Positions 3,227 through 22,765 of a stretch of DNA of 27,636 nucleotides are shown here, in pieces; positions within the stretch are counted from its first letter, which is position 1; the number at the start of each line of letters is the position of its first letter. Under the pieces are notes generated by a model. It was given only the letters and a program-made list of their open reading frames with translations, was not told the origin of the DNA and made no database searches. The translations under genes were made by a program, and so were the position numbers. This stretch comes from Sandaracinaceae bacterium (GTDB taxonomy: Bacteria; Myxococcota_A; Polyangia; Polyangiales; JAFGIB01): the NCBI GenBank assembly GCA_043752225.1, contig JAYUYY010000538.1:1-27636 (forward strand). Reading direction: 5' to 3'.

Positions 3227-4077
3227 TCTGCGACGGCCTTCGTCACCTCGGCCTTGAAGAAGTTTTCGAACACGGCATCGCCTTGGCCGAGCGCGGTAGC
3301 CTTCTCGGCAGCGGTGATCGCATCGGTCTTTTGACCCTTCTTAGCGAGCACCTGCGCGCGCACCCAGTTGTTCCACCACGTAGGCTTCACCGCGATCGAG
3401 GCGTCGATCAACGACAGCGCTCGGCCAAGCTCGCCGCCGCTCTCGAGCAAATAGCGCGCAGCAACGAATTGCGGCCGCCACGCTTCGTCGACCGCCTTGT
3501 CGATGTTGGCCAACGCCTGCGTCTTGGTATCGACCGCGAGCGGGATCGCGATGCGAATCTTCTCCCACTCGAGCTCGAGTCGCGCGCTCTCATCGGTCGT
3601 CGCCGAGAACAAGAACGTCAGCCGCTCGCGCATCTTGATCGGCGCAGGCTTCACCGTGATGCGCGCGACATCGAGCTTCGTGTCGAAGCCATCGTTGCCC
3701 CACGCCGCAAGTGAAGAGCTCAGCACGACGGTCCAGCTGGACTTACCCGGGATCGTATAGAGCGCGTAGCTGCCCGCCGGCACCCGCTTATCGCCGAACG
3801 TGAAGTCTTTGCTCGCCGTGAGCTTCGTCGCCGCGTTCGCGCCGGTGCGCCACGGGCGATCGTACGGAACGAGCGCTCCAAAAATCGGGCGCTTCTTCAC
3901 GCCTGGGCTCGAATAGTCGACCGAGAAGTCGGTCAGGCCGACGCGCTGGTCGACGCGTGCTTTGGGACTCGCTGCGGGGAGCTCGGGAGCTTGCGCCTGG
4001 GCGTAAGCGGTCGACAGCGTGGAGAAGGTGCAGGCGCCCGCGAGGGCAAGCGCGGCGAAAGAAGAGATCAAGCGCAT
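3208..4077 (-). CDS. DUF2911 domain-containing exported protein with C-terminal TPR-like helices
   Basis: Start moved to ATG 4077 (AGGAG SD upstream). Signal peptide MRLISSFAALALAGAC...AYAQ. ASPKARVDQRVGLTDFSVDYSSPGVKKR, LVPYDRPWRTGANAAT and AGSYALYTIPG are typical of DUF2911. Confidence 0.85.
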   Translation of the reverse strand: MRLISSFAALALAGACTFSTLSTAYAQAQAPELPAASPKARVDQRVGLTDFSVDYSSPGVKKRPIFGALVPYDRPWRTGANAATKLTASKDFTFGDKRVPAGSYALYTIPGKSSWTVVLSSSLAAWGNDGFDTKLDVARITVKPAPIKMRERLTFLFSATTDESARLELEWEKIRIAIPLAVDTKTQALANIDKAVDEAWRPQFVAARYLLESGGELGRALSLIDASIAVKPTWWNNWVRAQVLAKKGQKTDAITAAEKATALGQGDAVFENFFKAEVTKAVADWKKKP

Positions 4078-19360: not shown

Positions 19361-20122
19361 TTACATTTGTACGCGGCGCGTACCCTTGGGCGGCGCGAAC
19401 TTGAACGAGCTTGCGTCGACCTTGCCGTTGAACTTGAGGCCGGTGAAATCGAAGCGATTGCGATTTCCGCTCGAGTCCACGATCAACAACCGCCGCACCA
19501 ATCCGCGCACCGCGGCGGCGCGCTCGACGTAGAACAAGATGCGATCGAAGTGCGGCGTCGGCGTCTTGGGGCGCAGCTCGAGCACGTCGCCGGTCGTGAA
19601 GCCTTCTGTCGATGCATCGAGCAAGCGAAACGTGAAGTCGTCCTCGAGCTTGCCTGTGCCCATCAAGAACGCGAGCGCTTGCGGGAGCTGCGCTTGCGCG
19701 ATCGTTTGCTCGATCACTTGGCCGGGCTCGCCGTCTTCACCCGGCTCGAACACAGTGAGCGACTTGCCCGAGCTCGCGATCACCTTGCCGCTCGGCTTCT
19801 CGTAGTCCCAGCGCATCATGCCGGGCTTCTTGAACACGACGCGACCCGCGGAACGATCGGTTCGCTTGTAGAGCTTGTTCACGTACGTCTGATGGAAGGT
19901 CGCGCTGACGTCGAGCGTTTGGTCGTAGAACGCTTGCACTGCTTGCGCGACCGCGCGTGCCGCATCGCTGTGGTGCGCGACCACGGGCGCAACGGGCGCA
20001 GGAGCTGCGGGCTGAGCGACGGCGGGCTGAGCGACCGAATGCCCCGCGCCGAAGATCGCCCCGCACGTGATGAGCCCGATGACTGCCAATACGCTTTGCG
20101 TGCCCTGCTTGCTCGATCCCAC
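19361..20122 (-). CDS. lolA: Outer-membrane lipoprotein carrier LolA
   Basis: Start moved to GTG 20122 (AGGAGG SD). Signal peptide. SATFHQT, GRVVFKKPGMMRWDYEKP, PQALAFLMG, GNRNRFDF, FKF-PPKG. Confidence 0.88.
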   Translation of the reverse strand: MGSSKQGTQSVLAVIGLITCGAIFGAGHSVAQPAVAQPAAPAPVAPVVAHHSDAARAVAQAVQAFYDQTLDVSATFHQTYVNKLYKRTDRSAGRVVFKKPGMMRWDYEKPSGKVIASSGKSLTVFEPGEDGEPGQVIEQTIAQAQLPQALAFLMGTGKLEDDFTFRLLDASTEGFTTGDVLELRPKTPTPHFDRILFYVERAAAVRGLVRRLLIVDSSGNRNRFDFTGLKFNGKVDASSFKFAPPKGTRRVQM

Positions 20123-20452
20123 GTTGCCTCCTTCGTCCACTGTGCTCGCGTCTGGAGAGAGCGACTCGTCGCGACCCCATCCTGATTCACCCGGCTCTTC
20201 AACCCGTGCCGGCGTGCCGGCGTTCCCAAGGGCTGGAATTTCCGAGAATCCGACCCAATCGCGGTGCGGGGTTATGCGACCGAATCGCGGCCCCGGTCAA
20301 TTCGGCCCCCAACACCATGTTTCAAGCTCGGATCGATCGCGGGCGAGCGTTGCGATCGCAGATTTCGTTTGCGAGCCTGATCGCGCGGAGCTTGGACCCA
20401 GATTGGCTTAGCGACTCGAAGTCAGCGCCACCTGAAACCAGCGAGGGAACGC

Positions 20453-20653
20453 ATGCGACAGCGAAAGAGCAATCCGGACGCCTTGGTCGGTCGACTTCAA
20501 CGCAAGCACGGCGATTTGGCCGATCGCGTCGCGACCTTGGACAGTCGCCCGCATCTCTTGACTTCGGATGAAGCCGAGCTCGGCTCGCTCAAGCGCGAAA
20601 AGCTCGCTGCGAAAGATGCGCTCGACGCGCTCCGCGTGATCGATCGCGACTAG
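20453..20653 (+). CDS. Small coiled-coil protein, DUF465/YdcH family
   Basis: 66 aa, GAGGGA SD. RLQRKHGDLADRVATL...ELGSLKREKLAAKDAL matches the YdcH pattern. Confidence 0.75.
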   Translation: MRQRKSNPDALVGRLQRKHGDLADRVATLDSRPHLLTSDEAELGSLKREKLAAKDALDALRVIDRD

Positions 20654-20673: not shown

Positions 20674-21069
20674 CTAGCCCCCGACGGGAGCCGCGCTCCC
20701 CGGCGAGTACATCACCGGCGCCGAGCCGCCGGGACCCAGCGCTTCGAGCGTGCGTTCGAGCACCGGACGCCAGGGCGGCGGTATGTCCGCGGGGTCGTCG
20801 CTGAACAGCACTTGCGCCAGCGCGAGGTAGTGAAGGGCGTCGGCGCGCTGGCCCAACCGAAACGCGCTCATACCGCGCAGATAATAGAATCGCGCGCGCT
20901 CACCCGCGGACATCGTAGGCAGCTCGGCCTCGAGGCCGTCGAGCCATGCTGCGGCCTGCTCGTAGCGGGCGTCGCGATACAGGCTCTGTGCGGCGAGCAG
21001 ATCGGTGTGGGGCGAGGTGCAGGCCGAGAGCGCCAGTACGCAGAGGCCGCGGAAAATGAGAGCGCGCAC
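20674..21069 (-). CDS. Small TPR-like lipoprotein
   Basis: GTG start; lipobox LSAC. Helical AQSLYRDARYEQA and FYYLRGMSAFRLGQRADALHYLALA, which are TPR-like. Confidence 0.7.
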   Translation of the reverse strand: MRALIFRGLCVLALSACTSPHTDLLAAQSLYRDARYEQAAAWLDGLEAELPTMSAGERARFYYLRGMSAFRLGQRADALHYLALAQVLFSDDPADIPPPWRPVLERTLEALGPGGSAPVMYSPGSAAPVGG

Positions 21070-21157
21070 GCGCGCAGGATAGCCGCGAATCGCGTCGAAC
21101 CGCGACGACGTTGATAGCGCGCGAGGATCGTCGCGCGCGAGAGCTTGCTAGAAAGGC

Positions 21158-21192
21158 AAAAAGGACCCCGGCGTGTTCGCCGATGGGTCCTT
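21158..21192 (-). terminator. Intrinsic terminator for a minus-strand transcript
   Basis: RNA sense GGACCC-AU-CGGCG-AACA-CGCCG-GGGUCC-UUUUU. 11-bp GC-rich stem with a 2-nt bulge. The U-tract exists only in the minus orientation. Confidence 0.85.
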
Positions 21193-21300
21193 CGTGCCGA
21201 ATCGCGGAGCTAAGACTGAAGCCGAGCCAATCGAGATGAAGCTCAAACGAGACAAGCTAGGAACAAGTTACGAGCTGAACAGCGTTGGCCAAGTGAGCAC

Positions 21301-21342
21301 AAGCGAAGTTGGCAAAGCGAAGTTGGCAAAGCGAAGTTGGCA
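21301..21342. repeat. Perfect 3 x 14-bp tandem repeat AAGCGAAGTTGGCA
   Basis: Identical units at 21301, 21315 and 21329, with no spacers. Confidence 0.95.
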
Positions 21343-21505
21343 AACAGAGCGCGCGAGAAGCAGACAAAAGAAAGCGTTCAGTCAAAGCCAAGAACCCACG
21401 CGCGCTGTGCCGAGAGCTGAAAAAAGAAGTTAGTAAAAAGCGTCAGGCTAAGAGCGAAAGAGCTAAGTCGAGATAAGCCAAGCCAGCCGATGTCAGCCCC
21501 TCTTC

Positions 21506-21521: not shown

Positions 21522-21715
21522 CGCTCGGCGCCTTTGATTTCTTTCGAGAAGCTCGATCAGGAGCTGTGTGATTCCAGCTACTTGCGGGCTCGACATTCGT
21601 TCGATCCCACAGTGTTATGGGTCTCGATCGCCGCGTCTGGGGGTTGGTTCAGAGCTTGGGCTCGGCGCTTCATCTGACATCCGTGTCGCGACGAACGATG
21701 AAGTCGTTCACTCGC

Positions 21716-21743
21716 TTGCACAGTTAGATTTTTGCACAGTGCA
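21716..21743. promoter_or_regulatory. Direct repeat TTGCACAGT x2 with overlapping TGCAC-A-GTGCA palindrome; candidate regulator-binding site
   Basis: Copies at 21716-21724 and 21732-21740, separated by an AT-rich spacer. Confidence 0.35.
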
Positions 21744-21775
21744 TCCGGGTCGCGTGCGCTCGGAGGAGCCGGGGT

Positions 21776-22765
21776 ATGCTTCGCCCCGTGTCGTCGGCCA
21801 GCGATGCCGCGCCCGGGACCCCAACGGACGCGAGTCCACCGGAGCCTGCGAAGCGCTCTGAGTCGCGGCGCGAGTCGGGTGAAGTGCCGATCGTCGAGAT
21901 CGCGAGCCCAGTCGAGCCTGTCATTCCGCTCGAAGACCGCGTGCGTCGGCCCACGCCCGCGATCGGACAGGCGAGCGCGCCGCGTCCGCCGGTGCTCGCA
22001 TCGGAAGCGTTGCGCCGCGATCTCACGCCCGCGACGCCTGCGCCACGCGCCACGCGTCGCGTAGCGGTGTTGGTGGGCATTCTCGGCGCCGTACAGACGA
22101 TCTCATTGGCGGGCGCGCAGGGCGTTGCCATTCCGTTGGCGGGTGCGTTCGCCGCGCTGGCTGCGCTTGGGCTCGTGCCGATGGCGTACGTGTCGCGTGC
22201 CGCGGCGCTCGCGACGGTCGCCGGTGCGGGGCTCGGCGTGGCGTCGTTTGCCGAGGTTGCCGAGACGCACCGGGTCGAGCCGCTCGTGCTCGCCGCCGGG
22301 GTGACCACGCTCGCGGCTGCGCTGCTGTTTCGCGCCTGGCATCGCGCATCGTGGCTCTCGCGGGCGCTCGTCGCGCTCGGCATCGTGGTGTGCGCAGGCT
22401 TTCTCACGATGAGCCAAACCCTGCAGCGGCTGCCGATCGTCGACCCGTCGTGGCAGACGTGGTTGCCCCAGGTCTTGCAGCTCGTGCTCGTGCTGCTCCT
22501 GCTCTTGAGCCTGCTCGCGTTCATGGACGCGAGGTCGACCGGCGGCTGCGACGCGTGGGCCGTCTGCATCGTGGGTTGGTACGTCTGGTTTGGCGCGGTC
22601 GAGATGCTCGCGGTGCGATATCCGGCGACGGCATCGCAGATCGCGACTGGGCCTGCGGGCACGGTCGCTGCGCTGCACGTGGCCGCACCCTTGCTCACCG
22701 GAATGCTGGCGCTCTCACTGGCTCAGATTTGGGCTGCTCGCGCTGCGGCCCGCACCGCGCAGTGA
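21776..22765 (+). CDS. Hypothetical multi-pass membrane protein with Pro-rich N-terminal cytoplasmic region
   Basis: GGAGGAG SD. About 90 aa of Pro/Ser/Arg-rich N-terminus, then about 7-8 hydrophobic segments. Confidence 0.7.
   Translation: MLRPVSSASDAAPGTPTDASPPEPAKRSESRRESGEVPIVEIASPVEPVIPLEDRVRRPTPAIGQASAPRPPVLASEALRRDLTPATPAPRATRRVAVLVGILGAVQTISLAGAQGVAIPLAGAFAALAALGLVPMAYVSRAAALATVAGAGLGVASFAEVAETHRVEPLVLAAGVTTLAAALLFRAWHRASWLSRALVALGIVVCAGFLTMSQTLQRLPIVDPSWQTWLPQVLQLVLVLLLLLSLLAFMDARSTGGCDAWAVCIVGWYVWFGAVEMLAVRYPATASQIATGPAGTVAALHVAAPLLTGMLALSLAQIWAARAAARTAQ

Follow-up and report, generated by a model that had tools for sequence, protein, structure and literature searches.

Bacteria possess several kinds of RNA that are bound by proteins through short words or by mimicry, and these are the closest described systems to the element studied here. 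CsrB/CsrC and RsmX/Y/Z present the word GGA and have CsrA as their cognate protein, CrcZ/CrcY of Pseudomonas sequester Hfq/Crc, and GlmY, the enterobacterial RapZ decoy, acts by protein mimicry and is linked to envelope homeostasis, while the trp and hut leaders are bound by TRAP and HutP, respectively. Apart from Pxr, a regulatory small RNA (sRNA) of Myxococcus, post-transcriptional control in Myxococcota has, to our knowledge, hardly been explored. This work concerns a stretch of 27,636 nucleotides (nt) from a Sandaracinaceae bacterium, hereafter the window, which belongs to a metagenome-assembled genome that is 73% complete, and reports on a predicted sRNA of ~337 nt encoded on its minus strand at positions 21158-21494. 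This GCUU RNA, named after its repeated word, defines a new sRNA family that combines a known kind of architecture with a new motif.

In the window, the RNA is preceded by a sigma54 promoter, TGGCAC-N5-TTGC (21520-21506, minus strand), which is a perfect match with exact spacing of the -24 GG and -12 GC elements and which places the +1 near 21494, and it is closed by an intrinsic terminator (21158-21192, minus strand) consisting of a GC-rich hairpin at ~21192-21163 and the U-tract UUUUU at 21162-21158. The predicted transcript is pyrimidine-rich and contains 12 GCUU, 25 CUU and three CUUAGC words and zero AUG, and its GC content is 50%, compared with 66.6% for the genome. At 21301-21344 (minus strand), a 14-nt unit, UUGCCAACUUCGCU on the RNA strand, is perfectly repeated in tandem 3.1 times and carries the motif in every copy. 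Because the RNA has no AUG, the repeat unit of 14 nt and the strain-to-strain indels of 14 and 10 nt are not multiples of three, and the GC content is only 50%, the unit is read as non-coding, and we hold it very likely that this sigma54 unit is genuine, conserved and non-coding.

A preliminary description of this DNA, made from its letters, had proposed a minus-strand sigma54 unit without AUG, and the promoter, +1 and terminator were all recovered at the positions it had given, although the tandem repeat is a feature it did not contain. Its base composition for 21241-21480 (38% U and 12% A) agrees with the computed 38.3% and 11.7%, its three CUUAGC words were counted again, and GGA was indeed found in the terminator only and nowhere in the body. 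The 8-bp stem that it had pointed out (21348-21406, minus strand; 21406-21399 paired with 21355-21348) is GC-rich, perfect in sequence and also present in the RNAfold prediction, and encloses a 43-nt motif-bearing loop. As to the words counted within 21208-21487, the 22 GCU, 12 GCUU and 2 GCUG stand, whereas GCUC occurs 7 times and not 8, the eighth copy lying just outside this interval.

The unit is singular within its own assembly. Among the 20 strict sigma54 promoters found there, the element in the window is the only one that leads into a GCTT-dense stretch of low GC content, and the runner-up, on contig C665, was discarded since it drives an ordinary lipoprotein gene. The RNA locus is one of the three 250-nt stretches genome-wide that are richest in GCTT/CTTRGC (16 versus a mean of 1.5), and the other two are the antisense strand of Lys/Ala-rich coding repeats. 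A paralogue was likewise sought in the assembly and none was found, the other GCTT-dense windows being antisense to Lys/Ala-rich genes.

A BLASTN search of the unit against 40 relatives and its own genome returned only the self-match, and homologues were found by synteny, through the neighborhood of a TPR lipoprotein gene and lolA, and not by sequence match. The relatives, labelled Myxococcota, Polyangia, Polyangiales or Sandaracinaceae, comprised same-family genomes, further GTDB genomes and a 151-genome sample of the order. Orthologs of the TPR gene occur in 12 of 14 same-family relatives and in the window's own genome, and at all 13 of the 13 loci (13 of 15 same-family genomes) the TPR gene has TGGCAY-N5-YTGC 220-470 nt ahead of it; the strict promoter pattern is expected ~0.006 times per 1.5 kb. 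The promoter recurs in most of the other Polyangiales families, and throughout the order, 40 distinct Polyangiales loci/genomes, from families f1, f2, f4, f6, f8, f12, f13, f14, f16, f18, f19, f22, f23 and f24, share an upstream palindrome, the TGGCAY-N5-YTGC promoter, a pyrimidine-rich body of 93-705 nt and a strong terminator. The homologous bodies are full of GCUUGGC, CUUAGC and CGCUU, and a strong hairpin with a U-tract closes nearly every one of them, L007 being without a clear one. Promoter, terminator and GCUU density are therefore kept despite sequence drift at the syntenic Polyangia loci, where the preliminary description had suggested that conservation be sought, and the family is recoverable by synteny and motif statistics while it is invisible to sequence searches. 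Five complete genomes were also scanned with a pattern for additional copies, but the scan lacked specificity: controls gave as many matches as the real sequence, and what came up were coding repeats and a tRNA array.

The arrangement varies at its edges. In family f7, an RNA of ~125 nt stands directly before lolA and no TPR gene is present, and in genome G040 a short RNA is also followed directly by lolA. The TPR gene was tallied in 111 of 151 genomes, a figure that includes the unpublished genome G122, on which no other statement made here depends; upstream of this gene, the arrangement was not found in the sampled members of f5, f10, f11 and f17. Three f16 genomes, G120, G148 and G073 (L107-L109), have kept the palindrome and the TPR gene and have neither promoter nor RNA. 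At these three loci the palindrome lies ~130 nt upstream of the TPR gene, which looks like a secondary loss of the RNA.

The motif was defined on the 40 distinct loci, which together hold 10,089 nt of RNA bodies, and chance expectations for words were taken from dinucleotide-preserving shuffles. Family-wide, 327 GCUU words were counted, compared with 142±9.7 in the shuffles (z=19); the word is more frequent than expected in 40/40 loci and reaches z above 2 in 31 of them, and the number of copies ranges from 4 to 25 per locus; CUU occurs 708 times against 459 expected. The top 7-mers are UUCGCUU (57 versus 6) and CUUCGCU (57 versus 7), together with UUGCUUG, UUGGCUU and GCUUGGC, and a GCUU-to-GCUU spacing of 5 nt, as in CUUCGCUU and CUUGGCUU, is found 41 times where 1.9 are expected. 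Since GCUU is enriched while CUC, UUU, CUCU and CUCC are rarer than expected (the anti-Shine-Dalgarno-like CUCC, 55 versus 101), the signal is a specific word and not general pyrimidine richness. Its orientation on the transcribed strand is strict, with 327 GCTT against 16 AAGC, which is what an RNA-level signal predicts. The conserved word thus has the core CUU, usually extended to (S)GCUU and often arranged in CUU-N2-GCUU pairs, and the variants CUUAGC, CUUGGC, CUUCGC and CUUAUC all occur. The motif GCU(U/C) of the preliminary description survives in part, in that GCUU is enriched and kept across the homologs, whereas GCUC lies outside the motif and CUC is depleted. Absence of GGA, which characterizes the body in the window, was rejected as a family trait (79 observed versus 74 expected).

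In the RNA of the window alone, CUUAGC is the sole clear outlier (3 versus 0.24 expected, p=0.0008), GCUU occurs 12 times against 8.3 and GCUC 7 times against 5.3 in the shuffles; statistical support for the density of GCU-type words emphasized in the preliminary description is weak here, GCUY giving p=0.015 and GCU as such p=0.09 (22 versus 18.6±2.2), and the motif becomes significant only across the homologues. The same description had expected the body to pair poorly with itself, which did not hold, since its folding energy of -73.5 kcal/mol is neither better nor worse than that of the shuffles (-70.3±4.7 kcal/mol) and the body is therefore not unusually unstructured.

Tandem duplication is the source of new motif copies, both within a strain and from one strain to another. 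Compared with the window, a related strain seen in the public RNA run X9 has 14 nt fewer in the tandem repeat, lost in four neighboring deletions (1, 4, 7 and 2 nt), and the soil strain of the DNA run X3 has 10 nt more, and at the relative locus L097 a motif-bearing tandem repeat has a 12-nt unit in 4 copies. Selection on the RNA itself is indicated by other evidence as well. Eight lineages, the window's not among them, possess the invariant 15-nt element UGCUUGCCCGGCAUG at ~60-120 nt after the promoter (L021, L026, L029, L033, L061, L062, L064 and L068); this element folds into a hairpin of 5 bp around a UGCCC loop and caps longer helices of lineage-unrelated sequence, and it folds in this way in 8/8 cases. 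AUG is under-represented family-wide, with 51 occurrences against 90 expected. As an aside, the UGCUUGCCCGGCAUG hairpin could seed a covariance model.

The palindrome shared by the family is, in the window, a 20-bp element with the core GACA-N4-TGTC (21672-21691, minus strand), located 171 nt upstream of the -24 element and presumed to be the site of an enhancer-binding protein. GACA-N4-TGTC is found 95-171 nt upstream of the -24 element in 40/40 loci, compared with 0.35 loci in shuffles, with the consensus CCATGACAnnnATGTCATGG. Genome G003 (7.1 Mb, nearly complete) contains a single copy of the strict 16-bp palindrome, at the RNA locus. Across the phylum, the pair of palindrome and sigma54 promoter turns up in 95 of 401 genomes, compared with ~7 control matches among 802 control strand-scans, and in these phylum-wide pairs (L114-L143) GACA-N4-TGTC lies 86-116 nt upstream of the promoter, which suggests a widespread class of enhancer-binding-protein site. 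Beyond the Polyangiales, the pair precedes genes for lipoproteins or secreted proteins, kinases and sigma70-like factors; therefore, the type of site is widespread while the RNA as its target is order-specific, and the pair was rejected as a phylum-wide marker of the RNA. An IHF-like AATCA box between palindrome and promoter was also dismissed as a shared feature, for it is present in 9/40 loci only and is thus lineage-specific. No enhancer-binding-protein gene was identified adjacent to the RNA locus.

Two further observations were made in passing. On an 8.8-kb contig of the closely related X3 soil strain, the 100 nt between promoter and palindrome (window 21533-21634) are replaced by 90 unrelated nt and 24 nt are inserted at window position 21151, in the spacer that separates the terminator from the TPR gene; the RNA of this strain shows only ~13 differences. 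On contig C828 of the window's own genome (~3350-3535, minus strand), a unit of ~17 nt, GGTTGGGCTTGGCGTTC, is present in five tandem copies immediately before a sigma54-like TGGCAC-N5-TTGC that leads into a Ser/Thr-kinase-like open reading frame (ORF).

X9 is the sole public RNA run in which words of the sequence were found. This metatranscriptome yielded one matching contig of 228 nt, from a related strain at <90% identity, which matches 21203-21413 only and extends further within the RNA, and its depth is zero over both flanking genes. The contig is consistent with an abundant short transcript, as weak evidence, because the depth is low and carry-over of DNA is possible. Among DNA runs, the soil run X3 spans almost the whole examined stretch, and the sediment run X1 covers the TPR side to ~21364.

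Downstream of the RNA on the minus strand lies the TPR lipoprotein gene (20674-21069), which encodes 131 amino acids and belongs to a Myxococcota-specific family of unknown function. It is followed by a DUF465 (PF04325) gene of 66 amino acids (20453-20653, plus strand), convergent with the TPR gene, and by lolA (19361-20140, minus strand), a conserved member of the neighborhood; because the convergent DUF465 gene intervenes, lolA is not co-transcribable with the RNA and the TPR gene here. Upstream and divergent from the RNA, as in many relatives too, is a gene for a conserved multi-pass membrane protein (21776-22765, plus strand) with no Pfam/NCBIfam match. The minus-strand ORF at 21724-22698 was rejected as a gene and taken as the shadow of this plus-strand frame, which gave a best E of ~1e-39 by tblastn in relatives, compared with ~1e-21 for the minus-strand frame. 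The complete transcription unit of the preliminary description is supported as self-contained, with the correction that it is not detached from coding genes and always stands directly upstream of the TPR gene and/or lolA. The TPR lipoprotein gene is probably expressed by read-through of the terminator, because the start codon follows the terminator after just ~10-40 nt in several genomes (L003, L004, L006 and L009).

None of the 4227 Rfam families, CsrB, CrcZ and Pxr included, matched the window, whether gathering thresholds or a limit of E=10 were applied; ten homologous loci gave only a sub-threshold ctRNA match that was taken as spurious. Literature searches, including full text, retrieved no description of a GCUU RNA, and the motifs of Bacteroides RbpB showed no resemblance to GCUU. 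In five complete Polyangiales genomes, Hfq (PF17209) was found in none and CsrA (PF02599) in one, CsrA not being found in the RNA-carrying genomes G003 (f1) and G056 (f22), while RRM_1 proteins are present in all five at 3-5 copies each. G114 is another relative with a complete genome in which the locus is present. The phylogenetic correlation of the RNA with CsrA, Hfq or RRM proteins was uninformative.

Based on these findings, we propose that the GCUU RNA is an enhancer-dependent sRNA which would most likely serve as a decoy with many sites for a protein that binds single-stranded RNA and recognizes a word containing CUU, and that part of the transcription runs on into the TPR gene; we give this reading as a whole a probability of about 45%. 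A dedicated enhancer-binding protein would bind the palindrome at 21691-21672 and activate sigma54-RNA polymerase at 21520-21506, and transcription would stop at 21192-21158, producing a pyrimidine-rich RNA of ~337 nt, its ends as predicted from promoter and terminator, with a dozen GCUU words, often in CUU-N2-GCUU pairs. The RNA would then act in trans by titrating its protein partner, for which RRM-type or cold-shock-domain proteins are candidates, and a minority of transcripts may pass the terminator to allow expression of the TPR lipoprotein, which would couple the RNA to the same envelope-linked signal. A decoy is argued for because the word is short and degenerate, its copies are variable in number and duplicated, the sequence elsewhere has drifted totally and the orientation is strict. 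A GCU-cleaving RNase such as MqsR, put forward earlier as one possible partner, is disfavored, because GCUC words, which such an enzyme would also recognize, are not enriched.

Several points weigh against this proposal. The partner protein is hypothetical, and RRM proteins also occur in lineages without the RNA. In thermodynamic folds no preferential single-strandedness of the motifs was seen, the unpaired probability of GCUU being 0.46 compared with 0.45 for the rest of the RNA, and in the window alone the motif enrichment is marginal. The sign of expression is a single contig of low depth from a related strain, and its library may have contained DNA. Finally, the RNA is always found immediately ahead of the TPR gene or lolA, and the downstream gene starts soon after the terminator in several genomes, an arrangement that fits a cis-acting leader equally well.

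Such a leader, or attenuator, is the alternative that we take most seriously, even though it appears unlikely on the whole: a factor bound to the repeats, for example an antiterminator of the cold-shock type, would set the passage through the terminator, the short RNA would be a by-product, and the sigma54 promoter would really belong to the TPR lipoprotein gene or to lolA. The invariant order of promoter, RNA and TPR gene and/or lolA speaks for it, as do the short version directly before lolA in G040, the narrow gap between terminator and start codon at the four loci mentioned above, and the window's 88-nt spacer between terminator and TPR gene, in which a sigma70-like promoter was sought and none was found. 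However, the terminators are strong and stand-alone, and the minimum-free-energy folds of 25 homologues, with no dedicated search made, revealed no conserved alternative antiterminator pairing; the 4-25 motifs are spread over 100-700 nt and lie far from the terminator, unlike those of the TRAP, HutP and PyrR leaders. Moreover, the TPR gene is independent of such a leader, because there are lineages that keep it without the RNA, together with the palindrome in the three f16 genomes and without either palindrome or RNA in f5, f10, f11 and f17.

The RNA might instead pair with other RNAs, as a base-pairing regulator or RNA sponge in which GCUU/CUUSGCUU are redundant seeds for AAGC-rich RNAs, for example from Lys/Ala-rich coding regions or purine-rich spacers. 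AAGC-rich complements are indeed common in the coding regions of the window's own genome, and the spacers of a tRNA array in genome G123 read AAGCGAAGCG on the tRNA strand. Nevertheless, we judge this quite improbable: base-pairing sRNAs normally retain one longer seed, whereas the conserved unit here is just 4-8 nt and degenerate, the anti-Shine-Dalgarno-like CUCC is depleted, any specific target is hypothetical, and a search for targets with a 14-mer is expected to give matches at chance level only. The large tRNA array itself (G123:C1, ~3,457-3,462 kb; L144/L150) was noted as a side observation, its AAGCGAAGCG spacers being complementary to GCUUCGCUU words, maybe by coincidence. That the locus has no function at all, being a compositional oddity or degenerate repeat DNA flanked by chance look-alikes of a promoter and a terminator, would agree with the near-expected GCU count in the window, but it is strongly disfavored by the strict promoter at every same-family locus, the palindrome at all 40 loci, the family-wide enrichment of the motif and the covariation of the hairpins. 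A small protein encoded on either strand is hardly credible either. GTG/TTG-start ORFs of 35-86 amino acids exist on both strands, yet the RNA strand contains no AUG and AUG is rare throughout the family, neither the repeat unit nor the strain indels keep a reading frame, the homologues vary from 93 to 705 nt without alignable sequence, and the GC content of 50% departs from the 67% of the genome.

In its widest form, which is bold and in our view rather doubtful, the system could be a Polyangiales-specific global post-transcriptional switch, wherein an envelope-linked signal would be conveyed by one dedicated enhancer-binding protein and sigma54 to the GCUU RNA. By titrating an abundant single-strand RNA-binding protein of the RRM or cold-shock class, the RNA would re-program the translation or stability of many mRNAs, and it would be a functional analogue of Csr/Crc with a new motif and partner, physically coupled to lipoprotein sorting through the TPR lipoprotein and LolA. 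In an order whose sampled complete genomes yielded no Hfq and mostly no CsrA, the RNA is order-wide, presumably enhancer-controlled and built on a repeated motif. Its single defined input, one palindrome and one sigma54 promoter, would offer a handle on a global RNA-binding regulator in Polyangiales, and the locus is also a handle on the signal of the activator and on its relation to lipoprotein trafficking. The family is, moreover, a clear example of sRNAs that sequence search misses and that synteny with motif statistics recovers.

Compared with the known systems, the GCUU RNA resembles each in some respects. Like Pxr, it would be a myxobacterial regulatory sRNA, but it differs in size, architecture and taxon (Polyangiales), and Pxr was not recovered by the Rfam search. 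Like the TRAP-bound trp leader and the HutP-bound hut leader, it has repeated short words in an untranslated region upstream of a terminator and a gene; in those leaders, however, the repeats are 2-4 nt apart, fixed in number and overlap an antiterminator, whereas here 4-25 words extend over 100-700 nt and no alternative pairing was seen. GlmY is likewise a sigma54/enhancer-dependent sRNA with an activator site made of TGTC/GACA half-sites, GlrR sites having the form TGTC-N10-GACA, while the half-sites here are GACA-N4-TGTC; GlmY has a three-hairpin structure with one binding determinant in place of a repeat array, and it was not matched in Rfam. CrcZ/CrcY are similar in having a sigma54 promoter and an enhancer-binding activator, a scale of ~400 nt and several single-stranded decoy motifs, the multi-copy motif layout being the likeness, although their motifs are A-rich (AAnAAnAA) where the GCUU RNA has 12% A, Hfq was not found in any of the five complete relatives, and Rfam gave no match. 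From CsrB/RsmZ the GCUU RNA is set apart by its word, GCUU/CUU in place of GGA, which is absent from the body in the window, by words that are not preferentially in hairpin loops, by sigma54 and an enhancer instead of a GacA/UvrY-dependent sigma70 promoter, and by the lack of an Rfam match and of the cognate CsrA in all but one of the five complete relatives. Nevertheless, it has the general design of CsrB/CsrC and RsmX/Y/Z, namely a stand-alone sRNA of 100-400+ nt with an intrinsic terminator, in which a short word is present in many copies of variable number and is kept while the surrounding sequence drifts.

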